Virus record (IMG/VR): IMGVR_UViG_2645727640_000044
Span: 1 to 31,891 of that record
DNA length: 31,891 nucleotides
Source: a virus
Lineage: Duplodnaviria; Heunggongvirae; Uroviricota; Caudoviricetes
Direction: 5' to 3' (one strand)
The position numbers were made by a program, and so were the translations under genes. The notes beneath the pieces were generated by a model that saw only the letters and a program-made list of their open reading frames with translations, did not search any database and was not told where the DNA came from. Every line of letters begins with the position of its first letter. Positions within the stretch are counted from its first letter, which is position 1. Below, one piece after another: positions 3,001 through 30,012 of the stretch.

Positions 3001-4225
3001 AAGCACTGCCCTTCGCTTCTGATGCCTGCTTGGTCGCCTCATCTTTTGAAGCGGATGCTGAGGAGGCTGATGCAGACGCAGAACTTGCAGATTCAGCAGC
3101 TGCCGCCTTAGAGGAAGCAGCATTGTCTTCTGAAGTCTTTGCATTTGTTTCAGAGGTTTTTGCTGCCGATGCTGAATTTTTAGCAGCTGTAGCCTGACTC
3201 GTCGCCTCTGTCGCTTTTGTGGTAGCTGTTGTCGCTGATGACAATGCGCTATCCGCAGATTTTCCTGCCGCTGTTGCACTTGATGAAGCACTATCCGCAC
3301 TTGCTGAGGCTGCGCTTGCTGACGCTTCTGCCGCAGATTTCGAACTGTTTGCAGACGATGCACTCTGTTCGGCTGCCGTTTCAGATGCTTTTGCGTTTGC
3401 CTCTGACGTTTTTGCTGCCTTAGACGAATTTGCAGCTTCTGTTGCCGATGATGCTGCCGCGTTTGCGCTCGATGAAGCGTTAGTCTCTGATGCTTTGGCT
3501 GCATCCTTAGATGCAGAGGCACTGGACGCAGATGTTGCTGCCTCCGATGCTTTGGCCGACGCTACAGATGCTGATTCTGCTGCCGCTTCTTTTGCGGCTT
3601 GTGCGTTCGTTTCAGATTTTTTCGCAGCAGTTGCGCTCGCACTTGCAGCACTTTGTGAGGATGCCGCAGCGGATGCACTTTGAGACGCTTGAGAGGCTTT
3701 TTCTCCAGCGGTATTGGCGCTTTCTGCTGCTGCGGCAGCACTGGCCGCCGCCTCACGAGCTTTGTCGCCAGCAGCATCAATCGCGTCAGTGTTATTTTTA
3801 TACCACTCAACGTTTTCGTTGTGCTCGTTGACGATCTGCATTAGCGGCTTAACGGTCACTTCTGTACCGTCTTCACGCTCGATTGTCACCTCATCCAGAG
3901 CAGTCAACCAACTGCGCATGGACTTGGAATCAGCCGACATACGCGACATTAGTGCAGTAAAGCGCGCGCTAAACTGTGTTAAGTCGCCTTCATAGGTCGT
4001 AATGATTCGGCACGGAACTTCAGACTGAGTTTCGCCGGTATAAGGTTCTGAGAGAACAATGTTCGTATCACTGGTTACGCGCTTGATCTCATACAGCTTA
4101 TTGTCGGGGCCAATGACGATCATCCCCGGCAACACACCATTAGCTGTTACGTTCCAGGCTGTCCCTGCCCCAACCAGAGTATTGCTGCCCTGTGTAAATG
4201 TGATAGTACCTTCCCTGTACCACAT
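1..4225 (-). CDS. Side tail fiber protein, lambda Stf-like; 3' end lies beyond the window (C-terminus truncated)
   Basis: Minus-strand frame open from ATG at 4223..4225 (AAGGAG 11 nt upstream) to position 1; no complete minus ORF is listed here by the track, consistent with one uninterrupted frame. My translation begins MWYREGTITFTQGSNTLVGAGTAWNV, then an Ala/Ser/Lys/Glu low-complexity tract (KTSEANAKASETAAEQSASS...), then LSSAVDSTSESLAATPKAVKAA, which I recall as closely matching lambda Stf. Followed by at least five ~40-aa repeats of the phage tail-fibre repeat type (NTTGNQNTTGNAATATKLQTARTIGGVSFDGSANINLPGV). The plus-strand ORFs 417..4388 in the track are mirror frames of this gene. Confidence 0.8.
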   Translation of the reverse strand, partial: MWYREGTITFTQGSNTLVGAGTAWNVTANGVLPGMIVIGPDNKLYEIKRVTSDTNIVLSEPYTGETQSEVPCRIITTYEGDLTQFSARFTALMSRMSADSKSMRSWLTALDEVTIEREDGTEVTVKPLMQIVNEHNENVEWYKNNTDAIDAAGDKAREAAASAAAAAESANTAGEKASQASQSASAAASSQSAASASATAAKKSETNAQAAKEAAAESASVASAKASEAATSASSASASKDAAKASETNASSSANAAASSATEAANSSKAAKTSEANAKASETAAEQSASSANSSKSAAEASASAASASADSASSSATAAGKSADSALSSATTATTKATEATSQATAAKNSASAAKTSETNAKTSEDNAASSKAAAAESASSASASASSASASKDEATKQASEAKGSASTASTKATEAAGSATAASQSKTAAESAATRAEAAADRAEEIAGAVAMEDASLTTKGVVKLSSAVDSTSESLAATPKAVKAANDNANSRVPSNRKINGKALTADITLTPKDIGTLNSVTMSFSGGAGWFKLATVTMPQASSIVYITLIGGAGYNVNSPMQAGISELVLRAGNGNPKGLTGALWRRTSVGFTNFAWVNTSGDTYDIYVEIGNYATSVNVHWDCTANASVSIYTSPTYSASKPASVTDGVVYTMYSSHQKPTPSDIGALPTTGGTVSGPLSVTGGLTGSLNGNASTATKLQTTRTIGGVGFDGSANINLPGVNTTGNQNTTGNAATATKLQTARTIGGVSFDGTANINLPGVNTTGNQNTTGNAATATKLQTARTINGVSFDGSANISLSPANIGCPASPTGWLTTGSNGGAITTAQLVTLLQNNGAFNTKAWIARCAWAYANSATIPNSETGCGVIPLAGAVIEVFNNGSSSNNYTIRITTATTTSVSGALTNAEFIYVFNGTDYSPGWRRVYNTKNKPTASDVGALPLTGGTLSGGLTSSGEIVSKYANGFRIAYGSFGFFIRNDGGSTYFMLTASGDTLGSWNGLRPITINNTSGVVSIGNGLNVTGGINGSLNGNASTATKLQTARNINGVKFDGSGDININTLVSRGRVTALSGSTQGTAGIQMYEAYNNSYPTTYGNVLHMKGASAAGEGELLIGWSGTSGAHAPVFIRSRRDTTDAAWSAWAQVYTAKDSIPGVNTTGNQNTTGNAATATKLQTARKIAGVAFDGSADINLPGVNIAGNQNTTGNAATATKLQTACTINGVSFDGSKNIELTAEDLNLEQTVELAAGSLQKNQNGADIPDKDRFLSNINVYSKGEVDKKKGMRQYAFNAPSNAVGGKWYPVIFRRSTGSTGELASRVIITTTSASGDYAMNNCEFNGMVMPGGWTDRGSYAAGYFSTYQTNERAIHSIVTSLKEDDVCSVFYVEGRAFPVRVSAEEGLTVIVPTQD
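500..2160 (-). repeat. Tail-fibre-repeat coding units (about 120-nt period) inside the Stf-like gene
   Basis: Near-identical DNA blocks at about 545-775, 1050-1150 and 1830-2150 encoding ...GNAATATKLQTARTI.GV.FDGSANI.LPGV...; the plus-strand track ORFs ending ...AVCNFVAVAALPVVF are the antisense reading of these units. Confidence 0.7.
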
Positions 4226-4246
4226 GTTGAATATGCTCCTTGATTT

Positions 4247-4267
4247 GGTGGGCTATCCTTGCCCACC
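4247..4267 (-). other. Hairpin GGTGGGC-N7-GCCCACC in the 5' leader of the Stf-like gene
   Basis: Perfect 7-bp stem 18 nt upstream of the AAGGAG RBS; same stem sequence as the hairpin after the capsid gene (21243..21269); no U-tract. Confidence 0.35.
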
Positions 4268-4317
4268 ATTAAGTATGTACCTACTTATTTTTACCGATAT
4301 AAATATTTTTTTCTACA

Positions 4318-7300
4318 TTACAGAAGGCCAATTCTTACTCGTAGGACGTTGTTATCGTCATAAACGTCAATCCGCTGACCATTTATGACCAGTCGCCCAT
4401 TGCCGCCGCTATTACCGTTGATCTCAAGCGTTCCATTTTTGCCGAATCGCCATCCAGATCTACCGCTAACAAAATTGGTAGATTGCAGATCGCCTACTTT
4501 TGCATTGGTGATTGTGCCATCCTTGATATACGCTCCATTCATATAGGCGATACTGTTTTCGATAACAAATGGCGTTGTGATCTTCCCGTTAACAGAGTTG
4601 ACCAAACCAAACCTGTCCGCCTGAACCAAAAACTGAGATAGCCCAGTGGTGTCAATACCAAGCGCAATACCGGCAACATACTTCTGCCCTCCGCTCGTTG
4701 AAGTCTCCATTTTCAACGTCCACGCGGTTGACACTTTTTTGTTGGTATCAGCAATAGCTGTTGCCTGCTGTTGAATTGTCGCGGTATTTCCATCCACCTC
4801 TGCTTTCAGAGTATCGATTCGCCCACTCAGAGCATTATCTGCCTGCGTTCTCGCTGTCGTTTCAGTTGTTACCGCCGCGGAAATGTTGGCTGCCGTTTGA
4901 GACTCTAAGTTTGTGATTTGAGTCGCCAATGCAGCATCTTGCTCTGTACGCGTTTTCGTTTCGGTTGCTACAGCCGCTTTAATATCCTCTTTGTATTGAG
5001 AGGTCAGCTTGGTGATCTGAGACGACAACGCCGAGTCAGCATCAGTTCGAGCCTGCGTTTCAACTGCAACGGCCGCACTAATATCTTTCGCTGTCTGTGC
5101 TTTTAAACTTGAAACCTCTTTTGTTAAAGCGGTATCACCATCAGCACGAGCCGTTGTTTCTCTGGCAAGAGATGCCTCGAGATCATTAGCTTTTGCTGTA
5201 AGAGACGAAATCTGAGTGGACAATGCACTATCGGCATCAGTCCTTGCCTTTGTCTCTACAGCAACCGCTGCGGCAATATCAGTTCCGGTTTGTGCTCGCA
5301 GGCTGTTAATTTCTCGTGAGAGCGCCTGGTCAGCACTTGCTCTGGCCTCCTGCTCCTGAGTGATGGCAGCGGATATATCACCGTCAACCTTTGACTGAAG
5401 CTGGTTTATTTGTTTGGCTAACGCAGAGTCCCCGCTTGCTCGGGCCTCCTGCTCACTACGTATTGCAGCAGAAATATCATCATCAACCTTTGCCTGAAGT
5501 TGGGTGATCTGGCTTGCCAGAGCCGAATCTTCCGTTGCTCGGGCTTCTTGCTCTTCCTTAATAGCTGCGACGATATCGTTGCTTACTTTCGACTCAAGCT
5601 GAGTGATCTGTGTCGTCAGAGCTTCATCGGCAGATGTACGAGCCTCCTGCTCTGTACTAATCGCCGCGCTGATATCTCCTTCAAACTTAGATTGCAGCTG
5701 AGTGACACGCTTTGCCAACGCTTCATCGCCATCGGCACGAGCGGTGGACTCTTCCAGAATACTGGCCTTAATGTCTTCGCCAATTTCTACGCGAATTTCC
5801 TCAACCTTCGTGGCCATTGCAGACATATCATCAGCAAAGGTTTTCTGTGTTGTTGCGATCTTCGCGTTATTGACCATCTGCTTGTGCTGGTCTTCATCTT
5901 GACGAAGAGCCAGGTCAATATTTGTTTTGGCCAAAGCCTCAATGTTCGTAGTCAGTTCTGCACTGGCACGATCGACCTCTGCAACCGTCTTTTTCATTTC
6001 TTCAACGGCAGCGGAGCTTTCCTCTACCGTTGACTGCAACACTTCCAGTTGTTTAGCGTTTGCAGCATCACCTTCAACACGAGCCTCGCTTTCCTTAGCA
6101 ATAAGAGCCGCCGCTTCATCTCTTGCAGCCTTTATTGCCTCGACTGTATTAGCGAGAGCTTTATCGTGTTCAGATACGGTATTTTCGATTTCAACAATTG
6201 CAGCATCAGTAGCATCAATTTTTTCAAACGCTTCATTGACCTTGTCGATCGTTGCCGAAACCTCACCTTTAAGCTCGGTTTGTGCGTTCTCCAAAGCATC
6301 GCTACGCTCGTTGAATTTTATTTCAAAATCCGCGAGGTTATCGCTGAACTGCTTATCTAATTCAGCTATATCTTCCTTAACGTCGTTTACCGCCCCCTCC
6401 AAAGATTCGACGCTCTGGTTGATATGCTCATTTAACTCGTCAACGGCTTCTTGAGAGGCTTTGCTGTTGATGTCCTCAAGCAGAGCCTGACCAAGCTCGG
6501 AAGATGTAATTTTGCCAGTCAGGAACGACAGTACATCGCGAGTTGTCGCCTCTGTACCCAAGTTTGAGTTCGGAGGACTTAACATACCTCGCTTGTTCGA
6601 TGCTCGAACCCAGTAATACCACGTTTCGCTATCCCCAAGACCAGCATGTGTAAAGGTGGTGCTTGCAGACTCTGCGATCAGTTTCGCCGTATCCAGATTA
6701 TTGGTCTGGGACGCGTAAACATTAATGTGATCAAGGTCTACCGAATCTGGATTAACCCAATTCAGTATCACATTACGATAGTCTCCAACGGCCGTTAATG
6801 ACGTTGGGGCATCTGGCGGTGTCATTGTGCCCAGCACCTGATAAACGGTACTGATAATCTCTGTTTTTTTACCGTTGAATGAAACCGCATACAGCTGGAA
6901 GTCGTAGCGTCCATTCTCCGCAACATTAACGATTTCGTATTGCTCTTCGGTTACACGCGCCGATTGCCAGTTCGATACATTGTTTTCATCAGAACGTCGC
7001 CAACTGATCCAATACTCTGGAGATTTCCCTTCCCATGTTGCAGTCAGTTTTACTGACAGGTTGCCAGGGCTTGAGAGATAAGTCCCTTCGGTGATTTGCA
7101 AATTAGACGGCTTGGAGTAAGTCGGGTCCAATACCGTCGTATTTTGCGGGATAAGCGTTGCACCATTGTCGATCGCCTCATATTTAGACGGATTGTTCTC
7201 AACAGCGGTGATGTCAAAGCTACCCGGCGTTTCCCCCTGCGCGATGTTAACGATGCGAACGCGCATAGGTTCGAGGTCTGGTTCTGTAATAGTCCAGACG

Positions 7301-9045
7301 CCGTTCAAAACAGGCGTTTCAGCCGAAGACAGGGCTTTTGAAAACGTAACTTTTGTTATATTTTCGCCAGTTTCAAGAACATCGCGTTCAACGATTTTGC
7401 CTTCCTGATTCAGTATTCGAATAAAGCAGCCGCCTTTGGCTAACGACACAGGCGCATCGAGTGTGACGCTGTTTTTGGTAAACGCCACAATTCGACCTGA
7501 GTTACGTTTGCCTGCGCGATATTTGTTCTGAATCAGAACGGTTTCACCAGGCATCAGAAATGACGCGTCTAAGCCGGCAGTAAATGTAATTACATCCGAC
7601 TCCATTCTGGCGGTATATAAAAGCCATAAACCAACTCGGTGAGCCTGCCCTCGGCTTGTACAGCCAAATGCTACGACTTCTGTCTTACGCTCACCATAAC
7701 GGCGCATTGCGTCCTGATCTTCAACGTACTCGATGTTTTGCTTATAACCGTCCTCCTTGTTGTTGTAGGTTACGAGCGCAACGGATGGGCGATCTTTACG
7801 CGCAGAACCTTTATAGGTAAACAATCCATCTTTGACGTTAGAGTTGGTAAACATCATTACCGGATCTGATGGGCTATCCTGCATGATGTTAACCATCCCA
7901 CCAGCCCAAAACACCATGCCGCGGAATGCTCCAGCAATATCCTGAATTAGCCGGTATGCGTCCTGTCGACTGGTGATCTGCGTATTGATTGCAAAGCGTT
8001 TCTCTTTGCCACCAAAGCCATCATCGACCTCTTCGTCACAATATCGACCAATCTGGTACAACTGGCCAAGGTCAATCATAGATTCCGACACATACTGACC
8101 AAGGCCATATCGAGCATTGGTCAGCAAATCAAAGAGAATCCACGCGGGGTTCGAAGAAGACAACAGCTTAAAAGTACCATCCCATACCCCAGCGTAAGTG
8201 TTACTTGACTCGTTATAGTTTGAAGGTACTCGAATTTTTAGGCCACGCACCAGATAAGAGCGAGATGGCATGGTGCTGCCGAATTGCTCAGAGTTTACCT
8301 TCAATCCAACCAAAACAGAGTTTGGATAGTTCATCGGTGTATCGACAATTTCCCCGATTGAATCCACCCATGTATCGTTATAGAGATACTGGCTACTGTT
8401 ATCATCGGTAATACGGACTACACGAACCTTGTATGCGCGTCCAGGCTTAGGCAGCTTCAGCTCGTAGCTACGGTAATAAACGCCGGTCTTCTTTGCTGTT
8501 AGCTTAATGCCAACGCTTTTTTCACCTTCCGCGACCACATCTACAAATGTTGAGTCGCCATTTGCTATCTGGAACTTGTACTCAACAGTCGTACCGTTCG
8601 TGTCACCAGTTTTTTTATCTATGCTTCGCAAAGAAGGAAACTTCATGATGACACGAACCCGATCAGCTTCATCGTTATCGATTGAAACCGTTACATAATG
8701 TGTTTTTTTTAACTGGATATTGACGGATTTAGGCGTTTCAACGAAATCAAAGCCAGACATTGGAGTCTGGTCTTGTGAACCGTCGCGAAAATCCCATGTG
8801 ATTCCGCTGAAGTTGGAGGAACCGTCTTCATTTACAATCGGCAGATCGTCGATAAAAATAGATCTTGTGCCATTTACTAAGCCGCCAATTACCCCTTCCC
8901 CAAGAAGATCGAGGATAGCGGCCATTGCACGAGAATTTACGGTATCGTCGGCTTCAACCGGTGTACGGCTGGAGCTTTTGCTGCTTTTTTTACCACCCGC
9001 ACCGGCAATAAACAGCGGTAGCTTTTTCTTCTTGAACTGTTCCAT
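4318..9045 (-). CDS. Central tail fiber / host specificity protein, lambda J-like (about 1575 aa)
   Basis: Track ORF 4318..9051 (1577 aa) starts on TTG; ATG at 9043..9045 has AAGGA 10 nt upstream. Size, position after the I-like gene, and an N-terminal region typical of J-family tip proteins. Contains a long coiled-coil stalk with ten 33-aa tandem repeats before a C-terminal domain of about 150 aa. Confidence 0.85.
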   Translation of the reverse strand: MEQFKKKKLPLFIAGAGGKKSSKSSSRTPVEADDTVNSRAMAAILDLLGEGVIGGLVNGTRSIFIDDLPIVNEDGSSNFSGITWDFRDGSQDQTPMSGFDFVETPKSVNIQLKKTHYVTVSIDNDEADRVRVIMKFPSLRSIDKKTGDTNGTTVEYKFQIANGDSTFVDVVAEGEKSVGIKLTAKKTGVYYRSYELKLPKPGRAYKVRVVRITDDNSSQYLYNDTWVDSIGEIVDTPMNYPNSVLVGLKVNSEQFGSTMPSRSYLVRGLKIRVPSNYNESSNTYAGVWDGTFKLLSSSNPAWILFDLLTNARYGLGQYVSESMIDLGQLYQIGRYCDEEVDDGFGGKEKRFAINTQITSRQDAYRLIQDIAGAFRGMVFWAGGMVNIMQDSPSDPVMMFTNSNVKDGLFTYKGSARKDRPSVALVTYNNKEDGYKQNIEYVEDQDAMRRYGERKTEVVAFGCTSRGQAHRVGLWLLYTARMESDVITFTAGLDASFLMPGETVLIQNKYRAGKRNSGRIVAFTKNSVTLDAPVSLAKGGCFIRILNQEGKIVERDVLETGENITKVTFSKALSSAETPVLNGVWTITEPDLEPMRVRIVNIAQGETPGSFDITAVENNPSKYEAIDNGATLIPQNTTVLDPTYSKPSNLQITEGTYLSSPGNLSVKLTATWEGKSPEYWISWRRSDENNVSNWQSARVTEEQYEIVNVAENGRYDFQLYAVSFNGKKTEIISTVYQVLGTMTPPDAPTSLTAVGDYRNVILNWVNPDSVDLDHINVYASQTNNLDTAKLIAESASTTFTHAGLGDSETWYYWVRASNKRGMLSPPNSNLGTEATTRDVLSFLTGKITSSELGQALLEDINSKASQEAVDELNEHINQSVESLEGAVNDVKEDIAELDKQFSDNLADFEIKFNERSDALENAQTELKGEVSATIDKVNEAFEKIDATDAAIVEIENTVSEHDKALANTVEAIKAARDEAAALIAKESEARVEGDAANAKQLEVLQSTVEESSAAVEEMKKTVAEVDRASAELTTNIEALAKTNIDLALRQDEDQHKQMVNNAKIATTQKTFADDMSAMATKVEEIRVEIGEDIKASILEESTARADGDEALAKRVTQLQSKFEGDISAAISTEQEARTSADEALTTQITQLESKVSNDIVAAIKEEQEARATEDSALASQITQLQAKVDDDISAAIRSEQEARASGDSALAKQINQLQSKVDGDISAAITQEQEARASADQALSREINSLRAQTGTDIAAAVAVETKARTDADSALSTQISSLTAKANDLEASLARETTARADGDTALTKEVSSLKAQTAKDISAAVAVETQARTDADSALSSQITKLTSQYKEDIKAAVATETKTRTEQDAALATQITNLESQTAANISAAVTTETTARTQADNALSGRIDTLKAEVDGNTATIQQQATAIADTNKKVSTAWTLKMETSTSGGQKYVAGIALGIDTTGLSQFLVQADRFGLVNSVNGKITTPFVIENSIAYMNGAYIKDGTITNAKVGDLQSTNFVSGRSGWRFGKNGTLEINGNSGGNGRLVINGQRIDVYDDNNVLRVRIGLL
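4765..5760 (-). repeat. About ten tandem 99-nt (33-aa) coding repeats inside the J-like gene
   Basis: Protein repeats of the form DISAAI.xEQEARAxxDxALxxQIxQLxSKVxx read directly from the translation; the DNA shows the same periodicity. Boundaries approximate. Confidence 0.7.
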
Positions 9046-9062
9046 GTTCAAAAAATCCTTGT

Positions 9063-11132: not shown

Positions 11133-11214
11133 TGTTTCATCCTTGAAATAAGTAGGCGCTAACATCCTGTCAGCGCCACAATGATAGTAAATTAGTACTT
11201 ACTTATCCAGATAC

Positions 11215-11550
11215 TTAAGCCTCAAATACTTGTCTGAATGTAGCAGTTAAGACACAGTACCCCTGATATCGCTTGACCGTATGACTGTCACATACAACTA
11301 CAATCCGTTTTCCTCTTGGATTAACCCAATAGAACGACTCAACGCCTGCTCGCTCAGTCAGGAAGTCATCGATTGCATTAATTTCGTTGTATGATCTGGT
11401 AAAGGTTAACGACCATTCTTCTTTAATACGATTAAGACCTTGAGCCTGTCGCTGCTCGTAGTCATCACCAAAATTAAGTACCGTTACATTCGGTTTTACG
11501 CTTTTTTCAGATTCGTAATCTGGATACCAATTAAACGTTTGTCTTTCCAT
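11215..11550 (-). CDS. Minor tail protein, lambda M-like
   Basis: 111-aa ORF between tape measure and the L-like gene, the size and position of lambda gpM; ATG with AAGGA upstream. Confidence 0.7.
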   Translation of the reverse strand: MERQTFNWYPDYESEKSVKPNVTVLNFGDDYEQRQAQGLNRIKEEWSLTFTRSYNEINAIDDFLTERAGVESFYWVNPRGKRIVVVCDSHTVKRYQGYCVLTATFRQVFEA

Positions 11551-11565
11551 CTCACATCCTTGTGA

Positions 11566-11587
11566 GACTGCCCCGGTCGGGGCAGTC
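11566..11587 (-). other. Hairpin between the tape measure stop and the M-like gene start
   Basis: GACTGCCCC-GGTC-GGGGCAGTC (9-bp stem) adjacent to a second small inverted repeat CTCACA/TGTGAG (11551..11566) that overlaps the M-like gene RBS. Confidence 0.3.
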
Positions 11588-16866: not shown

Positions 16867-16887
16867 AGAGGCTCATCCTGAGCCTCT
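16867..16887 (-). terminator. Intrinsic terminator-like hairpin downstream of the major tail protein gene
   Basis: Minus strand reads AGAGGCTCA-GGA-TGAGCCTCT (perfect 9-bp stem, 3-nt loop) followed by CTTTTAAAA; sits between the major tail stop (16901) and the G-like start (16845). Confidence 0.55.
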
Positions 16888-17647: not shown

Positions 17648-17721
17648 TGATGGAAAACTCCTTTTTCCGTTAATTCTACGCATTCATTGCGCTAATAGTA
17701 AGTATATACTTACCTATTAAC

Positions 17722-20306: not shown

Positions 20307-21227
20307 TTATTCCTGTGCAGCAGTGACTTCTACGGTCGCTGTCGCTTTGTGGCTACCATCTTGGGTAGTAACCTCGATTGTGGCAGTACCAGCCGCAACG
20401 CCAGTTACAACACCGGTTTCGCTATCCACCGTTGCAAACTCGGTATTTTTGGATTCCCAAGTAACGGTTTTATTTGTTGCTCCTGCCGGCTCGACATTTG
20501 CGGTCAGCTGAACAGTTTTGTTTGCCTCAACGGTTGTGCTATTTGGGTCGATTTCGACGCCGGTAACAGCCACAACAGGCGCAGTTACTTCCACCGTTGC
20601 AGTTCCCTTTTTGCTGCCATCTTGGGAAACGATCTCAATCGTCGCAGTGCCAACTTCTACACCAGTAACGTTCCCGCTCTGGTCTACCGTTGCCTTGTCT
20701 TCATTTTTGGAAGACCAAGTAACTGCCTTATTCGTCGCATTTGACGGCTGAACATTCGCTTTCAGACTGACTGATTTCCCTTTCTCAACAGAGGTTGAGT
20801 CTGGCGTTACCGTTACGGATTGAACGGCTACCGGATTTACGGTGACTTCCACTGACGCGGAAAGCTGGGTTTCCTGATCAGTTGCAGTAATTTTTACTTT
20901 GCCTGGTGCTACGCCAGTTACTAATCCAGTGCCATTAACGGTTGCAATTTGGTCATTTGCTGACTTCCAGGTGAATGAACTGGCACTCTTACCCATACTA
21001 ATACCTGCACTAAGTTGAACAGTTTTCCCAACCAAAACTGACGGTGAAGCCGGGGTTATGTTTACGGATTGGGAGAGGGGAACCGCCTGCAAACAAGCAG
21101 ATAGCTGACTTTGTTGCCGCTCGGTTAAAGGTTCATCGGAGATAGAATTGGTAAATCCGGCACGGCACATATGCCCCGTAAAATCCGAAAATGCCTCTTC
21201 CGTAATCTTCATCTTTTGTTCTGGCAT
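20307..21227 (-). CDS. Ig-like domain protein with three tandem Big_2-type repeats; possible capsid decoration or surface protein
   Basis: Three repeats of about 90 aa of the form VxSVTVTPxSxxVxxGKxVxLxAxVxPxxATNKxVTWxSxNxxxATVDxxGxVTGVxxGTATI; ATG with AGGAG upstream; located directly after the major capsid gene. Confidence 0.7.
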   Translation of the reverse strand: MPEQKMKITEEAFSDFTGHMCRAGFTNSISDEPLTERQQSQLSACLQAVPLSQSVNITPASPSVLVGKTVQLSAGISMGKSASSFTWKSANDQIATVNGTGLVTGVAPGKVKITATDQETQLSASVEVTVNPVAVQSVTVTPDSTSVEKGKSVSLKANVQPSNATNKAVTWSSKNEDKATVDQSGNVTGVEVGTATIEIVSQDGSKKGTATVEVTAPVVAVTGVEIDPNSTTVEANKTVQLTANVEPAGATNKTVTWESKNTEFATVDSETGVVTGVAAGTATIEVTTQDGSHKATATVEVTAAQE

Positions 21228-21242
21228 TTCTCGCTCCTACAA

Positions 21243-21269
21243 AAAGGGTGGGCGTATAGCCCACCCTTT
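21243..21269 (-). terminator. Intrinsic terminator-like hairpin downstream of the major capsid gene
   Basis: Minus strand reads AAAGGGTGGGC-TATAC-GCCCACCCTTT then TTGTAGGAGCG; GC-rich stem followed by a T-run, immediately after the capsid gene stop (21301) and upstream of the next RBS. Confidence 0.6.
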
Positions 21270-21300
21270 AACATAGATAATTACTTATCTACTTCACTGA

Positions 21301-22176
21301 TTAAATTTTTACATTGGTCAGTGCAGCGATAGCCTTATCGTGCTTATTCGCCAGAGAGCAGTACCACTTCACACGGGTACGTACTGCGTCTTTGTTCTGT
21401 ACAGTACCAATGTTTTCAACAACGATACCTGCGTTGTCGCCGCCATACAGACCAGTAACGCCGTTCTCTTCTGACAGATGCAGGCAGTAGATGCTTGCTT
21501 TGCCAGAATCGGTCGGGATGAAGTCGTTGATGATGAACGGAACGCCGTTATGACACAGCATCGGACGACCGAAGTTCTCCATCATGATTTCAGACGGACC
21601 TACATTTACTGTACGCAGCAGCGCACGGTAAGCACGCAGGTGCTCTGAACGCATCATGATGCAGTCAGCACCAAGATCTTTCACCGCATCGACCAGTTCG
21701 TCGAACATAGAGAAAGTCATAGATGCACCGGCGATATCGATCTTCTGATCTGCGTGCATCAGGCGTGGAATGCCGTCAAACGCCTTGTTGTTGGAGCTGG
21801 AGTCACCCAAAATCAGGTTGCGACGGAACGCACGAGCCAGACCTTTAACTTTCTGACGAACCTGAATAGCCAACTGGTTGTTGGTGTCGGCCATAGTGGT
21901 CGCCAGGAATTTATCAACGTCTACGTCACCAGCCAGAATACGCAGTTTCGCAACGCATTCTTCGAAGGTTGCTGCACCTTCAGGGATGGTGTCGTTAACG
22001 TCGATGAAGGTAGCTTCACTCAGCGTTTTTTCACGGTTGTACAGATATGCCTTTGAATTAATTTTCATAAAAGGCAGGATGGCAAACAGGTCATCGCGAT
22101 CGATGATAGTTTCGATCACACCCTGTTCAAGTTCGTTGTTAGACAGCTTTTCAGCTTCTTCACGCAGTAATGGCAT
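21301..22176 (-). CDS. Major capsid protein (candidate)
   Basis: 291-aa ORF in the scaffold to capsid to terminator position, with ATG start; assignment by synteny and size, no diagnostic motif recognised. Confidence 0.65.
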   Translation of the reverse strand: MPLLREEAEKLSNNELEQGVIETIIDRDDLFAILPFMKINSKAYLYNREKTLSEATFIDVNDTIPEGAATFEECVAKLRILAGDVDVDKFLATTMADTNNQLAIQVRQKVKGLARAFRRNLILGDSSSNNKAFDGIPRLMHADQKIDIAGASMTFSMFDELVDAVKDLGADCIMMRSEHLRAYRALLRTVNVGPSEIMMENFGRPMLCHNGVPFIINDFIPTDSGKASIYCLHLSEENGVTGLYGGDNAGIVVENIGTVQNKDAVRTRVKWYCSLANKHDKAIAALTNVKI

Positions 22177-23089: not shown

Positions 23090-23110
23090 AAAAATTCCTT
23101 TTGTTACTTA

Positions 23111-24685
23111 TCACTCGTTCTCTTGAGTAGATGAGTCCCCATTCCCTCGGGGTTGATCTTGCCCGCTTTCTTGGGCTGCACCACGATCATAAGTAAGTAC
23201 CGACTTATTTTCAAGGGTGTTTAGATCATTTTTTGGAGGAAAATTCAAGAGATCTTTATCAAATTCCTTTTTCATCGCCTCAGTAATGTTCGGGAAAATC
23301 TTCTCAATAAGCATTTCCATCTGGTGACGACGTACAGAGTCCGGTGCCTGAAGTAATGACAGTTTCTCGGCAACAGAAAATTCATCAGTAAGGCCACGAA
23401 TATCGAAACTTTCTGGATACGCAATTAAAGAGTGGTCTTCGTCCAGATCTACCCCCATCCATTTCGCAACCAGTAGCATGATTTGGCGTTCAGCCCTTTC
23501 CAGACGCTCTGCTTTTGTGACAAGCAAGCTATTTACACGCTGGAAGTCATACATTTTTGCGGCACCAGATGAATTATCGATTCCCTGTGCGTTGTCCTGC
23601 TTCGTTCGCTCACCAGCTACACCAACTGAATGGTAGATTTCGTTAATCACCGTCTTAATCGTAGTGATGATCATCTGAGCTTGTTTCGGGTCTGGTGACA
23701 GATAAAACGGCTGGTTTCCACCTTCAGAATCGTAGGTGAAGACTCGCTTTGTGCCCATTTCAAGCACTTTAGTGTGGTTTTCATCACCAGGTAAAAGCGA
23801 CTGTACCGGTATAGCCAACTGGCTAAATGTCTGATCCTGAATAATGGCATCAAGGTTTGACAGATAGTTTGCAACCGCACGATCAAGATAAGCGATATCA
23901 TCGATCAACGATGGGCTGAAATACGGTGATTCACTTTCTCCAATACAATCAACAGGAAACACAGGAACTACGCCGAGATTATGCTCACCGCTATCCTCTA
24001 AAATAACTTTTGCCTGACGGCGACCTGCTCCACCAGCGCCCTTCTTCACTTCCTCACGGAACAGATACCACTCGTTTTGTGTCCACAGACGATAACGTTG
24101 GTATTCCTGACCTGTAGAAGTAAAAGGATCTGCGTCATCACGAGCGACTTCCACAATTAACGCCCACAACATATTCCCGTCGTCGTCCCATGCCACATCC
24201 AGCATTTGCTGAGGTGAAATCCAGTAGGCGTAGGCGCGAGCATCTTTCTTTTTCTCGTCAGCTACTGACTCAACATCACCACTCATCGTGCTATCGACAA
24301 CAACCCATATGCGACCGTAAATAGACGACTGCAAATCAATAGCGGCCATAAATGAGTCAATAGAGGCATTCTGGCGAGTCGCACGTTTCCAGAAATTGCG
24401 GATCTGCTCTGGTGCCTCTTCGATATTTCTATGAATGTCTTCTTTAAAGAGATATTTGTTGATGAGGTTTACCACCTCACGAGTGTGGTTGAAGCGATAA
24501 GCACGTTCAACTCGCTCCTTAAACTCCTGATCTCCCTCTTTAAAGTAACGAAAGATATTGTCTGTAAACCAACCACGCCCGCCAGCGTAAGTGCTGGCGA
24601 GGAAGTCCCAATGTTCTTTTTTCTTTTCGTATTCCGGGTGGCGTCGCGCCACCAGATCCTTAATTTGTTTGTCGTTCAATTCCAT
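23111..24685 (-). CDS. Portal protein (candidate)
   Basis: 524-aa ORF immediately after the large terminase gene, acidic C-terminal tail; ATG with AAGG upstream. Assignment by synteny and size. Confidence 0.7.
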   Translation of the reverse strand: MELNDKQIKDLVARRHPEYEKKKEHWDFLASTYAGGRGWFTDNIFRYFKEGDQEFKERVERAYRFNHTREVVNLINKYLFKEDIHRNIEEAPEQIRNFWKRATRQNASIDSFMAAIDLQSSIYGRIWVVVDSTMSGDVESVADEKKKDARAYAYWISPQQMLDVAWDDDGNMLWALIVEVARDDADPFTSTGQEYQRYRLWTQNEWYLFREEVKKGAGGAGRRQAKVILEDSGEHNLGVVPVFPVDCIGESESPYFSPSLIDDIAYLDRAVANYLSNLDAIIQDQTFSQLAIPVQSLLPGDENHTKVLEMGTKRVFTYDSEGGNQPFYLSPDPKQAQMIITTIKTVINEIYHSVGVAGERTKQDNAQGIDNSSGAAKMYDFQRVNSLLVTKAERLERAERQIMLLVAKWMGVDLDEDHSLIAYPESFDIRGLTDEFSVAEKLSLLQAPDSVRRHQMEMLIEKIFPNITEAMKKEFDKDLLNFPPKNDLNTLENKSVLTYDRGAAQESGQDQPRGNGDSSTQENE

Positions 24686-24711
24686 TTGAATAACCTTAGA
24701 TAATTACTTAC

Positions 24712-25968
24712 CTATCTAGAACCACCAAGAATAACACGGTTTTTGACTGGATACCTACGATGTACTGGATAGCCCAATGCGTCTGCACTATGCTCAATGC
24801 CACCCGTCTTATCCATATCTCGTGTTCCAGGCTTGTAGATGACTTTTTCCAGTGAATCAATCAAATGCTTGCACTTCGGATCGATATACAGCCGGATATC
24901 TCCAGATGCGGACATCAGCATTCGGTTAACAGCATTAACACGATCCGCAATTGGCGGGTGCTTTTTCGAATAATCGACACGTAAGAATCCCTTCTCTTTG
25001 AATATGTCTACGTCAGACTCCCCACGAGCATGTTGGCGATAAGCACCTGCCGGATCTGGAAATACCGTTACCTGTGATTTCCAGCGCCAGAAGCGTCTCT
25101 CAAGCTCATCACAAACTTCTGCCGTGTTAGAGGAAAAGAGCACCAATTCATCAATTGCCCATAGCTCACCATTTGGCTGAGGTTGCAAAATTACTGAAGA
25201 CATCGGGTCAATGTTGAAGTCCTGCCCTACCCATATAGGCAACCGAGGGTTGAACTGAAGCGGTTTTACATGCACGTTACGATCGAACGGGTAGTAAACG
25301 CGCCCGGACATGTTCTCAAAGCTGGCCAGGTACTCCTGAGCGAACGATTTGGGGTCCATATCGTTCTTAGCAGCTTCAATTTCCGCCGTAGGTACAAACG
25401 GAGAATCGGCAGTTACAAACTGCCAGCTCTTCCACTGTCCCTTTCTTTGCAGCTCTACGTTCTGGCCTATAGTCCACAGTTTGTGAAATTCCGAGAAGCC
25501 TTTTGGCGTACCAATGATCAGTGCACCGCCGCGTGTCGATGAAAGAGTAGGTCGTAACACCTTGTACCAGGTGTCAGCCTTCATATCCTGAAATTCATCA
25601 AGCACTACAAAATGCAACGCTACGCCGCGCAGAGTGTCAGGCTTATCAGCACCTTTGAGGGCGATCTCCGAACCGTTCTTCAACACGATTGTCATCGTGG
25701 TGTCGTTCTTTTTCCTAACCCACTTACGAGGCAGAACTTCCTGTAGATCGTCCCACAAAATCTGGCGAGCCATCTGGTAAGTAGGAGCGACATACCAGAC
25801 CCTTTGCTTTTTTTCCTTTGCCGCCGCACGAATAATAGTGGAGATCGACAACCGGGATTTTCCCCAGCGTCGACCAGCACAAACAACTTTAAATCGATGC
25901 GGAGACTGGAAGACTTTCATCTGTCCAGAATGCAGTTGCACAAGACTGAGCGAGGACGGGATTGCCAT
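24712..25968 (-). CDS. terL: Terminase large subunit
   Basis: Walker A VVCAGRRWGKSRLS, Walker B-like HFVVLDEFQDM, Asp-rich C-terminal nuclease-like region (VGQDFNIDPMSSV ... IDELV). ATG overlaps the upstream stop as TAATG. Confidence 0.85.
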   Translation of the reverse strand: MAIPSSLSLVQLHSGQMKVFQSPHRFKVVCAGRRWGKSRLSISTIIRAAAKEKKQRVWYVAPTYQMARQILWDDLQEVLPRKWVRKKNDTTMTIVLKNGSEIALKGADKPDTLRGVALHFVVLDEFQDMKADTWYKVLRPTLSSTRGGALIIGTPKGFSEFHKLWTIGQNVELQRKGQWKSWQFVTADSPFVPTAEIEAAKNDMDPKSFAQEYLASFENMSGRVYYPFDRNVHVKPLQFNPRLPIWVGQDFNIDPMSSVILQPQPNGELWAIDELVLFSSNTAEVCDELERRFWRWKSQVTVFPDPAGAYRQHARGESDVDIFKEKGFLRVDYSKKHPPIADRVNAVNRMLMSASGDIRLYIDPKCKHLIDSLEKVIYKPGTRDMDKTGGIEHSADALGYPVHRRYPVKNRVILGGSR

Positions 25969-26600: not shown

Positions 26601-26680
26601 AGATCCCTCTAAAACACACAGAGCGCGTCCATGCGCTCTAAAACAACTTGTTTACTGCATCTGCTAACCAACTTGTTTTC
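26601..26680 (-). repeat. Cluster of direct and inverted repeats immediately upstream of terS (candidate packaging or operator site)
   Basis: Plus-strand CTCTAAAACA at 26607..26616 and 26636..26645, flanking hairpin AGAGCGC-GTCCAT-GCGCTCT (26619..26638); CAACTTGTTT at 26643..26652 and 26669..26678; palindrome AAACAA-C-TTGTTT at 26641..26653. Confidence 0.35.
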
Positions 26681-26795
26681 TGGGGTGTTTAATTAGGTCT
26701 GGCATGTCTTACGAAGCCTGCTTCCGTATATATTTAATAAGTTACTTATTATTTATATATACAGATGCAGGTCTTTAAATAAGCTCCCAGACCGA

Positions 26796-27071: not shown

Positions 27072-27962
27072 TTATGCCGGTAAAGCAATTTCTAACGGTT
27101 TATCCAAAGGTTGTTTGTCGAATGCCAGCAGTGGCAGCGTGTCAGGCAGTCGACGGCCAAAGTCAGGGTTTCGGTACACACCATACAACGGAGACGTAAA
27201 GCTCAGGTTGTGAATGTCCTTGAGCAGCTTCACAATGCTGGCCTCGTCCACCAGACTGTCGGCAATGTCCTGAATCGTCGTGCCACGATTCCGCCCAGCT
27301 TTTGCCAGGGAACTGTTCTTATGGTAGTCCGCCACCAAATCGCGCAGCGCACGGCGACGACGAGACTCGCTCATAGCGAACAACTCTTTGACGATCGCCT
27401 CGTTATCACCCGGGTCGGAGCGGAAATGGCGCTGGAACACACGCAGTGCACTTTCATAGCTCTTCGGTCGCTCAGGGCGGATGAACTTAAACCCTGCTTT
27501 CATGGCGAAGGGATTGTATTTGCTCATCGAGGACTGGATCTCAATGATTGGCCGGTCATGCATCCTGCTAACCAGGTTAATCATTCGATAAGAGACGCCT
27601 ACGCCACGATACTGAGTATCCACAACTGAGCGACTGATCACCGCAAAGTTGTTATTCACGTACCGACCCCAGTACTGGTTAGCCACGGTGGTATTAGTGG
27701 TTGGTTTCAACTTAGGAAACATGCGGTGGCGAGGTGCCAACAGTAGTTTCGGGTAAGCCATAACCACGACGCCCACCAGACGGTCATCCAGTTCGCAGCG
27801 ATAGTATGTTGGCGCGAAAGGTTTGCCGTCTGTTTTGTAGTGAAGCGACTTAAGAGCGTGCCAGTCCTCTACAGTTCCCTTTGTGACAGTCATTCGCTCC
27901 AGAAAGTCCAGATGACGCGGAAACTCTTCAGGGCGGTAGCGTTTGATGATGATGTCCGTCAT
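27072..27962 (-). CDS. GNAT-fold acyltransferase-like protein with C-terminal extension of about 120 aa
   Basis: GNAT motif A-like AVISRSVVDTQYRGVGVSYRMINLV and motif B-like NPFAMKAGFKFI, read by eye. ATG overlaps the upstream stop as ATGA. Confidence 0.5.
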   Translation of the reverse strand: MTDIIIKRYRPEEFPRHLDFLERMTVTKGTVEDWHALKSLHYKTDGKPFAPTYYRCELDDRLVGVVVMAYPKLLLAPRHRMFPKLKPTTNTTVANQYWGRYVNNNFAVISRSVVDTQYRGVGVSYRMINLVSRMHDRPIIEIQSSMSKYNPFAMKAGFKFIRPERPKSYESALRVFQRHFRSDPGDNEAIVKELFAMSESRRRRALRDLVADYHKNSSLAKAGRNRGTTIQDIADSLVDEASIVKLLKDIHNLSFTSPLYGVYRNPDFGRRLPDTLPLLAFDKQPLDKPLEIALPA

Positions 27963-28624
27963 GAATGGACCTCATCATGACTACCATTGTGATATTCCAC
28001 CTTCACGCGTTCTTTGTAGTGCTTGGTGATCTGCATATCCGGGCGCAGCGCGTTCTTCAGGTCTTCGTGAGTCGTCGCCACCATTACCGTCGCACCAACC
28101 TTTCGAGCGGCACGCTGGAGGTTAGATGCCACAACCTGAGCGGTTACACGGTCTAGAACAGCACCGAACTCGTCAGCAGCCCACACTTTAGCGCCTGACT
28201 CAATCAGTTTGGCAATCTTGAGACGATATTTCTGACCGTCTGACATTTCAGAAGGCTTGCGAACAAACAGATATGCATCGTTCAGACCAGCCATAGATAA
28301 CAACCCAAGCGCATCGCTGGTCGTTTTGCCCAACTGATCGATGACGTTAACCTCATTATCGAAGGTAAAATCATCGATGGAGGCTACAGACAGCCCTTCA
28401 TCCTTCATCTGTCGTTGCAACTCGCGCAGCACAACGGATTTGCCGGAACCGGATTGGCCGGTGATATACACCACATCGCCCTGCTTCACTTCCAGCTCCA
28501 GATTGTCGTAAAGCGTCCACTCTTTTTCGTCCAGGCCAAGCCCGAACGACTCAGCGATTTCCAACGTGCGCGTGGTTTTATTTACGCGTGTCTGAAACGA
28601 TACGTTGATGATGTATTTGCTCAT
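27959..28624 (-). CDS. ABC-type P-loop ATPase (nucleotide-binding domain only)
   Basis: Walker A ITGQSGSGKS, signature-like MSDGQKYRLKIAKL, Walker B AKVWAADEF, H-loop VATTHED; ATG overlaps the upstream stop as ATGA; GGGGAG RBS. Confidence 0.75.
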   Translation of the reverse strand: MSKYIINVSFQTRVNKTTRTLEIAESFGLGLDEKEWTLYDNLELEVKQGDVVYITGQSGSGKSVVLRELQRQMKDEGLSVASIDDFTFDNEVNVIDQLGKTTSDALGLLSMAGLNDAYLFVRKPSEMSDGQKYRLKIAKLIESGAKVWAADEFGAVLDRVTAQVVASNLQRAARKVGATVMVATTHEDLKNALRPDMQITKHYKERVKVEYHNGSHDEVHS

Positions 28625-29289
28625 GCAGCCATCTCCCCAGAAGAGATCTTCTCCGCATATGCCACAAATGCGTCTACCCCGCTTTCTCCCGTCATTTCTT
28701 CCATGTGGGCAAGCAAATCACCAACAACAATGGCAGAGCCAGCAGGGAGCGTTTTAAAGCCCAATACGTCGACAACACGTACTTCTTCCGCTGCAACTTC
28801 ACGACTGATCTCGGTGTGTTCATCCTTCTGTCGTTTAGTTTCTTCGCCAAGATCGATAACTAGCGAGTCGGTGTCCATTTCTTCTGTCATACTGCCAACG
28901 AGAACATTCAACTCACGCTCTTCAAAGCCGAAAACCTCGATATCGTCCAGAACAAGCGACTCAAGCTCTTTCTGTAGCTTAATTGCATCGTAATCAATGC
29001 TGGCAAGTCGGTTATCTTCAAGGCGCTTCGCACGAACCTCGTCATCACTGAGATCATCGCGAACAATAACCGGTACGCGCTCAAGTCCAGCAAAAATTGC
29101 AGCCTCACGGCGGCCGTGGCCAGTAATAATTACGTCGTTCTTATCGACCGTAATTGGCTGGTCAAATCCGCGCTTTTTAATGGCTGCGGCCAGATCTCGG
29201 ATCTGCTGTTCATCATGCTTTTTGGCATTCATCTCATAGGGAATAAGATCTGCCGGGTCGCGATATACGATTTCAAACTTTTTGGTCAT
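28621..29289 (-). CDS. ParB/Srx-fold nuclease-domain protein (second copy)
   Basis: GxxRxxA motif ITGHGRREAAIFAG characteristic of the ParB N-terminal domain; ATG at 29289 with AAGGAG upstream, overlapping the upstream stop as TAATG. The track's longer ORF (to 29322) starts further upstream. Confidence 0.7.
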   Translation of the reverse strand: MTKKFEIVYRDPADLIPYEMNAKKHDEQQIRDLAAAIKKRGFDQPITVDKNDVIITGHGRREAAIFAGLERVPVIVRDDLSDDEVRAKRLEDNRLASIDYDAIKLQKELESLVLDDIEVFGFEERELNVLVGSMTEEMDTDSLVIDLGEETKRQKDEHTEISREVAAEEVRVVDVLGFKTLPAGSAIVVGDLLAHMEEMTGESGVDAFVAYAEKISSGEMAA

Positions 29290-29969
29290 TACATACGCTC
29301 CTTGTAGTAGTCGACCAGCCACACCAGAGCCTCACCAGCGTTCTCCATTTCATTACCGGTGTTAATAGCCTGCTCTTTGATGATGTTTTTTATGGTTTCT
29401 GCAACACGATCTGACGCATCGAAAGTTACTTTGAAGCGCATGGTCTGATGTTCCGCACCCACACGTTCGGTTTTCTCTCGTTTGTCGGTATCGACAGGCT
29501 CATCACTACCACGAGACAACGCCTCCAGTGCTTCAAGGTCGATTGCCGCCTCTTTTGCTAAAACCATCGAGATTTCGTCGTCATACGGGGCGATTTCAGA
29601 CAGTTGATAGTCAAGTTCTGACTGAATTTCTTCAATGAAGCGTTGCAATGCGATTTGGTCGTCTTCACCGTATCGCTCGTTGTCCACCAGTGACATCTGT
29701 TTAGCTACGACATCGCTAATTTTGCCCACAGAAAGCACCGGAACCGTTGAAATTCCTTGCTCAATAGCGGCACGCCAGCGATGTTCGCCGCCGAGGATTT
29801 CAAAAAATCCATCTTCAAGTTCACGAGCCAAAATTGGCTTAAAAAAGCCCAATTTTTCGATAGAACCTTTCAGTTTTTCAAAATTCTGCGCACCAACCGA
29901 ATTGGTGTTCCAGGTATTCGGGCGAAGGTTGGCAACATCAACCTGCAAAATCGTGATTTTTACATCCAT
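29289..29969 (-). CDS. ParB/Srx-fold nuclease-domain protein (first copy)
   Basis: ParB box II-like ILGGEHRWRAAIEQGISTVPVL (compare GERRxRA). Start uncertain: ATG at 29969 (MDVKITIL...) or GTG at 29987; neither has a strong SD. Confidence 0.65.
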   Translation of the reverse strand: MDVKITILQVDVANLRPNTWNTNSVGAQNFEKLKGSIEKLGFFKPILARELEDGFFEILGGEHRWRAAIEQGISTVPVLSVGKISDVVAKQMSLVDNERYGEDDQIALQRFIEEIQSELDYQLSEIAPYDDEISMVLAKEAAIDLEALEALSRGSDEPVDTDKREKTERVGAEHQTMRFKVTFDASDRVAETIKNIIKEQAINTGNEMENAGEALVWLVDYYKERM

Positions 29970-30003
29970 TTTATTGCTACAATCCACTAAGTAATCACTT
30001 ACT

Positions 30004-30012
30004 TATTATAAT
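30004..30012 (+). promoter_or_regulatory. Candidate -10 element in the divergent spacer between the ParB operon and the helicase gene
   Basis: TATAAT at 30007..30012 within the palindromic ATTATAAT, about 40 nt upstream of the helicase ATG; no good -35 recognised. Confidence 0.3.

Follow-up and report, generated by a model that had tools for sequence, protein, structure and literature searches.

The two hairpins that carry a GGTGGGC stem in the DNA studied here, one in the leader of a tail-fibre gene (Stf) and the other behind the major capsid gene (MCP), are, as judged from their sequences in relatives, different RNA elements that have the heptamer in common in some lineages only. The two stems do not appear to be co-constrained, because GGTGGGC is present at both loci in only 10 of the 39 contigs that hold both, and because the Stf stem of phage Cyrano is GGCGGGC/GCCCGCC despite 97% identity of its flanks with the sequence analysed here. 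Moreover, the two hairpins are conserved in opposite ways, the stem behind the capsid gene being invariant and its loop variable, whereas the lower stem of the tail-fibre hairpin varies and its loop is conserved. These results depart from the earlier note, which had read the reuse of the stem as the mark of one shared conserved element. The explanation that we favour, namely a terminator behind the capsid gene, a GGA-loop hairpin in the tail-fibre leader, stems that coincide and a dyad that is separate from them, is moderately probable as a whole.

The shared heptamer is in itself an ordinary finding: in some lineages a capsid-gene terminator and an intercistronic hairpin happen to have the same letters in their stems. 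Its dissection separates what is conserved (the pairing, the GGA loop and the spacing between loop and Shine-Dalgarno sequence, SD) from what is not (the heptamer), and exposes two signatures that extend over the whole family: a series of GGA-loop hairpins in the late operon and an intergenic dyad with about 25 sites.

Setting and conservation of the two hairpins

The stretch of 31,891 nucleotides that was analysed, hereafter called the window, is by its sequence the virion-gene region of a phage-plasmid of the SSU5/pHCM2/pMT1 type. Its closest relative is phage Cyrano (97-99% identity), it is related to SSU5 too, and the same region is found in hundreds of plasmids of Escherichia, Klebsiella, Enterobacter, Salmonella (pHCM2) and Yersinia (pMT1). 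The family is clinically widespread, including pHCM2 of S. Typhi, pMT1 of Y. pestis and many plasmids of E. coli and Klebsiella. All virion genes lie on the minus strand, which is the transcribed and coding strand, in the order TerS (26600), TerL, portal, MCP, Ig-like Big_2 protein, tail genes, TMP, J and tail fibre. Spacers are named below by the genes that flank them. The features of the two loci are the following.

22176..21301, minus strand: major capsid gene (MCP), stop codon at 21303..21301
21272..21293, minus strand: AT-rich dyad of the MCP-Ig spacer, core TAGATAAGTAATTATCTA at 21291..21274, between the MCP stop and the predicted terminator
21243..21269, minus strand: MCP-Ig hairpin, AAAGGGUGGGC / loop UAUAC / GCCCACCCUUU, then UUUUUG, the U run reaching 21241
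21225..21239, minus strand: SD UAGGAG and ATG of the Ig-like gene
21227..20307, minus strand: Ig-like (Big_2) gene, ATG at 21227..21225
9051..4318, minus strand: J gene
4268..4289 (also given as 4287..4270), minus strand: AT-rich 22-bp dyad of the J-Stf spacer, AATAAGTAGGTACATACTTAAT, directly 5' of the hairpin
4246..4268, minus strand: hairpin of the Stf leader, UGGUGGGC / loop AAGGAUA / GCCCACCA, loop GGA at 4258..4256, without U-tract
4236..4241, minus strand: SD of the tail-fibre gene, AAGGAG, with GGA at 4239..4237, 19 nt after the GGA of the hairpin loop
1-4225, minus strand: tail-fibre gene (Stf), start at 4225 (ATG 4225..4223), running off the window

The presence of a GGTGGGC stem in both hairpins is confirmed on the coding strand, and so is the common layout that had been described for the two loci, an AT-rich dyad followed by hairpin, SD and ATG. 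In coding-strand notation the J-Stf spacer (92 nt) reads AAUAAGUAGGUACAUACUUAAU-GGUGGGC-AAGGAUA-GCCCACC-AAAUC-AAGGAG-N10-AUG, and the MCP-Ig spacer (73 nt) reads UAGAUAAGUAAUUAUCUA-UGUU-AAAGGGUGGGC-UAUAC-GCCCACCCUUU-UUG-UAGGAG-N6-AUG. RNA folding was run on both leaders and gave -15.5 kcal/mol (z = -4.35) for the 8-bp stem of the Stf hairpin and -20.5 kcal/mol (z = -4.94) for the MCP-Ig hairpin, which has an 11-bp stem with 8 G/C-rich pairs and a 5-nt loop; none of 200 shuffles folded as well in either case. We gathered both spacers from IMG/VR contigs and plasmids, obtaining 43 distinct sequences for MCP-Ig and 28 for J-Stf. Both hairpins are kept in these relatives and behave as selected RNA structures. 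A scan of the whole window with Rfam 15 returned no matches, and our search of the literature on promoters, terminators and motifs of SSU5, Cyrano and pHCM2 found nothing relevant, nor any transcript, binding or expression data for the family.

The MCP-Ig hairpin has the anatomy of an intrinsic terminator, that is a GC stem of at least 5 bp closing a loop of 3-8 nt and at least five U in the 8 nt after the stem, and it is listed by the terminator scan. Its 5' arm, GGGTGGGC, is unchanged in all 43 relatives, each of which also has a run of 5-9 T after the stem, while the loops (UAUAC, UAAGC, UUGC, AGUC, GAAA) and the flanks vary. Substitutions in the 3' arm yield only G.U or U.G pairs, two-sided pair changes being zero, and the wobble cells of the helix (20 G.U vs 4 A.C) favour an RNA of the coding strand. 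By this anatomy and conservation, the hairpin and its U run very probably constitute a Rho-independent terminator or attenuator, in agreement with the earlier suggestion that it acts as a terminator after the capsid gene. It would end or thin transcription past a very abundant capsid gene, leaving a protective stem at the 3' end. Intrinsic terminators follow the major capsid genes of phage late operons, as does T-phi of T7 after gene 10. The MCP-Ig hairpin resembles them in its GC-rich stem of 8-11 bp, 5-nt loop, immediate run of at least five U and position right after the gene of the most abundant structural protein, but the letters of this predicted terminator stem are unusually invariant and an AT-rich dyad lies 6 nt upstream of it.

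The evolution of the Stf hairpin has followed a different course. Among the 28 relatives five of its eight pairs change on both sides (GC<->UA, GC<->AU, CG<->UA), with 93.5% of the cells paired, and the covariation score exceeds those of 500 out of 500 shuffles and of all slid controls; RNAalifold predicts this helix only. The lower stem takes the forms GGU/ACC, GGC/GCC, GAC/GUC, GUGU/ACAC, AUGU/ACAU, GAU/AUC and GGCUGG/CCAGCC, the conserved parts being the top GGGC/GCCC pairs and the loop (AAGGAUA, AAGGAU, AUGGAU, AGGGAU, AAGGAC or AUGGAAC). The loop contains ANGGA in 25 of the 28 relatives and is without GGA in the other three; wherever it is present, the loop GGA lies 17-20 nt from the SD GGA (25/25), and the SD columns of the tail-fibre gene are invariant (alignment A1). 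Even in the leader of pHCM2 type, which cannot be aligned with the others, a hairpin (UCAGC-AGGAA-GCUGA) precedes the SD GGA by 23 nt. Mismatch types in the helix give no strand (5 G.U vs 9 A.C). On these comparisons the tail-fibre leader contains, in the J-Stf hairpin, an RNA stem-loop under selection that by its sequence does not terminate transcription in the window, and the conserved feature of this hairpin is a C-G-closed loop with A(N)GGA set 17-20 nt upstream of the SD GGA, not the letters of the stem.

The statement of the earlier note that these stems do not represent a generic terminator is thus supported for one hairpin and not for the other. It stands for the tail-fibre hairpin, which in addition to its compensatory changes and conserved loop is followed in the window by AAAUCAAGG rather than a U-tract and receives no call at its position in the terminator scan; it does not stand for the MCP-Ig hairpin, which has the make-up of a canonical intrinsic terminator. 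About half of the Stf relatives carry three or four U after the stem (UUUUC or UUUAC, for example), and weak termination may occur in some of these lineages.

GGA-loop hairpins of the late operon and a possible role of CsrA

According to its sequence, the Stf hairpin groups better with a series of GGA-loop hairpins in the leaders of TerS, M, L and h13 than with the MCP-Ig hairpin. These are found in the window as follows.

26620..26639, minus strand: TerS leader hairpin, AGAGCGC / AUGGAC / GCGCUCU, with a U-rich tail and then SD AGAGGGA
16867..16887, minus strand: hairpin between the major tail protein gene and h13, AGAGGCUC-AGGAU-GAGCCUCU, then CUUUU
11550..11567, minus strand: M leader hairpin, UCUCACA-AGGA-UGUGAGA, with the SD inside the loop
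11155..11177, minus strand: L leader hairpin, GGCGCUGACA-GGA-UGUUAGCGCC, core ACAGGAUGU, with a dyad at about 11186..11207 before it and UACUUAUUU, SD CAAGGAUG and ATG 11132 after it

In relatives the TerS hairpin has loops AUGGAC, AAGGAU and AAGGAA and its stem alternates between GCGC and GCAC/GUGC. The stem of the h13 hairpin alternates between GAGGCUC and GAGGCCC/GGGCCUC around loops AGGAU, AGGAA, AGGAC or AUGGAU, so that GAGGCUC-AGGAU-GAGCCUC of the window type corresponds to GAGGCCC-AUGGAU-GGGCCUC in Klebsiella. The stems of the L leader are GGCGCUGAC, GUGCGCUAAC or CAACGUCAC. From its sequence context, the gene for minor tail protein L probably starts at ATG 11132 (ATGGGAATTAAA, preceded by the SD given above), as in relatives, and not at the first in-frame ATG (11165), which the leader hairpin holds in its loop and which is the start annotated in Cyrano. 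In one relative (IMG/VR contig 2711768037_000009, L258:189-306) a (GGTGAT)n microsatellite replaces the hairpin of the M-L leader.

The late-operon spacers of Cyrano contain six hairpins with GGA in the loop, compared with a mean of 0.46 in shuffles, none of 1000 shuffles reaching six. Their density in the late operon is about 8-fold that in the rest of the genome (Fisher p = 0.015) in a GGA-centred census, which was used in place of a stricter census based on minimum free energy; the latter, which missed several of the hairpins, gives p = 0.07 for the same comparison. SD-like GGA is common in spacers generally.

Loops of this kind are reminiscent of the targets of the regulatory protein CsrA. 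CsrA sites present GGA in the loop of a hairpin, usually a hexaloop, with the SELEX consensus RUACARGGAUGU and a second site at the SD; one CsrA dimer bridges two sites over 10-63 nt, a distance of about 18 nt being optimal (PMC7652899). It is conceivable, then, that a GGA-specific RNA-binding protein, most plausibly a dimer of host CsrA, bridges the loop GGA and the SD GGA of the Stf leader, and that such bridging would tune the translation of the tail fibre and of other late genes to the physiology of the host. By analogy, we regard CsrA-type bridging at this candidate site as the most likely mechanism, though only as a tentative proposal that falls short of being probable. A search with tblastn found no CsrA homologue in Cyrano (best E = 2.6), and therefore a host protein would be the actor.

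Several features of the Stf leader, and of the M and L leaders, agree with this proposal. Its loop GGA is accompanied by an SD GGA well within the bridging range (19 nt in the window, 17-20 nt in the 25 relatives), an arrangement like that of bipartite CsrA targets such as E. coli glgC, in which a high-affinity loop GGA is combined with a GGA overlapping the SD. The loop GC-AAGGAU-GC of relatives is isosteric with the AC-ARGGAU-GU hexaloop of the SELEX ligands. The M leader contains ACAAGGAUGU, an exact match to the 10-nt core of the SELEX consensus (PMC7652899), and both this sequence and ACAGGAUGU of the L leader resemble the CAGGAUG hairpin repeats of CsrB and RsmZ (PMC7652899).

Other features do not agree with it. 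Most SELEX ligands of CsrA have a stem of at most 4 bp, and very stable stems may disfavour the protein (PMC7652899), whereas the Stf stem has 8 bp and -15.5 kcal/mol, and the candidate stems of this class are in general longer and more GC-rich than those of typical ligands. With respect to the SELEX consensus the picture is mixed: in the window the sequence is GGCAAGGAUAGC, with the 7-nt loop AAGGAUA instead of the canonical hexaloop, and in many relatives it is GC-A(A/U/G)GGAU-GC, which has CARGGAUG as its core but G-C as closing pairs. CsrA-like words are not enriched in the window as a whole (CANGGAKG 8 vs 6.7 expected, ACARGGATGT 1 vs 0.17). The targets would also be virion genes of a phage-plasmid, and the literature that we searched contains no description of Csr acting on such genes. 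The closest parallels are cel, the lysis gene of ColE7, which CsrA represses (PMC2896534), and prophage activity in Serratia, which RsmA suppresses (PMC4046660). Both likewise place extrachromosomal or prophage genes under a global RNA-binding regulator of the host, but they concern a lysis gene and prophage induction, and not a series of intercistronic hairpins in a structural operon.

The main rival to the CsrA step is a purely structural role, in which the Stf hairpin serves as a stabiliser of the mRNA or as an insulator. It could shield the J message from exonucleases or stabilise it, cap the 5' end of an stf message after processing or, in some lineages, terminate weakly. The loop GGA would then have no significance of its own, being a product of SD-like drift or part of a ribosome standby site, and CsrA would not be involved. 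We take this fallback as a serious possibility, though still not a probable one. GC hairpins do fill the spacers of this genome, 41 of its 50 perfect ones being intergenic, and the UUU(U) found after the stem in about half of the relatives, the stable stem of 7-8 bp that is atypical of CsrA ligands and the absence of enrichment in CsrA-like words are all in line with it. What it leaves unexplained is why the loop GGA and its distance of 17-20 nt to the SD are kept while the letters of the stem change, why an AGGAA-loop hairpin appears again in the non-homologous leader of pHCM2 type, and why GGA loops cluster in the late spacers far beyond their frequency in shuffles.

Two other functions were considered for the hairpins and rejected. 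A lambdoid nut site, with boxA a few nt ahead of a 5-bp boxB stem that closes a GNRA-like pentaloop, is not supported, as the 50 nt preceding each hairpin contain no boxA-like match to CGCUCUUA and neither loop (AAGGAUA, UAUAC) is of the GNRA type. An RNase III site needs about two helical turns of stem, and was rejected on anatomy since stems of 8-11 bp fall far below that length. For a late promoter of P1 type (Lpa box), the literature search returned nothing usable.

The AT-rich 22-bp dyad

The TACTTA motif that had been noticed before both hairpins is indeed present, but it is half of a separate 22-bp dyad with a consensus of approximately GATAgGTAAGTnACTTACcTATC, which recurs about 25 times in the genome. 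Its copies in the window are the following.

4268-4289, intergenic: dyad copy of the J-Stf spacer
about 11186-11207, intergenic: dyad copy of the M-L spacer
about 17697-17718, intergenic: dyad copy
21272-21293, intergenic: dyad copy of the MCP-Ig spacer
23101-23112: dyad half-site
near 23188-23209: dyad copy inside the portal gene
24689-24712, intergenic: dyad copy
29986-30007, intergenic: dyad copy

Nine of the 12 coding-strand TAAGTA hexamers of the window fall within its 827 intergenic bases, and RRTAAGTAA occurs six times, always on the coding strand, compared with 0.43 expected. In Cyrano a matrix built from these instances finds some 25 sites over the early and late regions, all but two of them intergenic or on a stop codon. 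Some of the dyads are followed after 5-7 nt by the -10-like boxes TG-TAAGAAT or TATAAG, others by a hairpin or directly by the SD. The dyad is not predicted as an RNA helix by RNAalifold; at the Stf locus its variation is only one-sided, but at MCP-Ig five pairs change on both sides. From these sequence properties the dyad is probably a DNA operator of a dimeric regulator, and its sites may form the operator set of a global regulator.

Dispersed operators are a known property of global repressors of mobile elements, for example the stoperators of L5 gp71, the operators of P1 C1 and the OB sites of RK2 KorB. The present dyad is like them in having about 25 copies almost solely in short intergenic spacers, one of which is just upstream of a ParB_N gene. 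Unlike stoperators, which are asymmetric, it is a symmetric element of 22 bp, some copies preceding -10-like boxes and others hairpins; our literature search found nothing on it. The neighbouring ORFs hold no candidates for a dyad-binding protein by Pfam apart from two ParB_N proteins. The genes of the latter are in tandem and, together with a gene for an ABC-type ATPase, lie just upstream of the packaging genes (28621-29987 and 27959-28624), with a dyad 18 nt before the start of the first. The ParB_N and ATPase genes are possible candidates for the dyad-binding system.

A more ambitious reading combines the two signatures. The hairpins before TerS, h13, M, L and the tail fibre would let host CsrA/Csr, or another binder of GGA loops, gate the translation of virion proteins according to the physiological state of the host, and in parallel the dyads would serve a global regulator as its set of operators, in the manner of KorB or of stoperators. 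We consider this combination rather doubtful in its entirety. Both signatures nevertheless lead to testable hypotheses, on the silencing of more than 100 kb of lytic genes and on the tuning of virion production.

The recurrence of dyad and hairpin side by side could also be viewed as a DNA-level cassette (dyad, hairpin and perhaps SD) that is duplicated or recombines, in which a regulator bound to the dyad and the terminator would work as a roadblock or an anti-termination switch and the stem would be shared by common descent or gene conversion. The order of dyad and then hairpin at MCP-Ig, J-Stf, M-L and RuvC-NrdA would be explained in this way, as would the reuse of stems across the genome and the nearly exclusive intergenic location of the dyads. 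The reverse order, with terminator and then dyad, is however found at MazG-ThyX, h106-h107 and RecA-mem. Dyads without a neighbouring hairpin are in the majority, and so are hairpins without a dyad (only 9 of 41 adjoin one), and the distant relatives L140-L143 keep the MCP terminator without any dyad. Together with the lack of support by RNAalifold for the dyad as RNA, these data make the cassette unlikely, and we retain the reading of the dyad as an element separate from the hairpins.

The shared heptamer and other repeated sequences

GGTGGGC occurs five times in the window, compared with 2.67 expected, a count that is reached by 13 of 100 shuffles. The window contains eight intergenic GC hairpins, and in simulations some pair of these shares a 7-mer arm in 5-8% of cases; taken by themselves, the letters in common are therefore barely out of the ordinary. 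The identity of the two stems in all likelihood arose from a single pair of the Stf stem toggling between C-G and U-A. The similarity of the two loci is nonetheless visible to covariance models. With the model built from the 28 Stf leaders (R1), the place in 113 kb that scores highest after the Stf leader itself is the MCP-Ig spacer (26.1 bits, E ~3e-4). The reciprocal model of MCP-Ig recovers the Stf leader at 22.2 bits (E ~0.007), but it gives a higher score, 32.4 bits, to the RuvC-NrdA spacer, whose layout is the same and whose stem is unrelated. The succession of dyad, hairpin and start is seen at M-L as well, again with an unrelated stem.

The notion that a single sequence-specific element stands here in two copies, be it an attenuator, a processing site or a 5' stabiliser, and that the GGUGGGC of its stem is what is recognised, can draw upon the identical heptamer and layout in the window, the cross-hit of the Stf model, the strikingly invariant arm of MCP-Ig and the fact that most Stf stems are within one or two changes of it (GGCGGGC or GUGUGGGC, for example), yet it is very improbable given the small proportion of genomes sharing the heptamer, the free compensatory change of the lower Stf stem beside an MCP stem that never changes in this way, the unrelated loops with a conservation rule for each, the U-tract at one hairpin only, the better fit of RuvC-NrdA to the MCP-Ig layout despite its different stem, and the frequency with which chance produces a shared 7-mer.

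Reuse of stems is a wider phenomenon in this genome. In Cyrano (L001, L154, L155) eight pairs of hairpins share a stem 7-mer, compared with 1.27 expected. Reused intergenic GC stems include AGGCGTCC (three times), AGCGCCCA (twice) and TGGTGGCC (twice), at loci such as SSB-Exo, RecA-mem and stomatin-h58. Such reuse points to terminator hairpins that were duplicated or converted, and the two heptamer stems may accordingly have a common ancestry.

Other repeats were encountered in the course of the analysis. The tail-fibre protein has a long low-complexity region rich in Ala and Ser and several copies of a NQNTTGNAATATKLQTARTI.GV.FDGS.NI repeat, and the C-terminus of J is a long run of coiled-coil-like repeats of about 30 residues (DISAAI..EQEAR...AL..QI.QLQ.KV). 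At the DNA level, a long inverted repeat with a dyad-like centre, CCTGCTTC(C/T)GTATATAT ... ATATATACAGA(A/T)GCAGG, is located at 26717-26771 of the window, within the 195-nt spacer upstream of TerS. The genome has three copies of it, namely the one before TerS, one at h30-h31 and one at Dam-h80 (Cyrano L154 ~3660-3710 and L155 ~8080-8135), and it may have a role related to pac or cos, or else one as a promoter or origin-like element. The Cyrano record begins midway through the TerS copy of this repeat.
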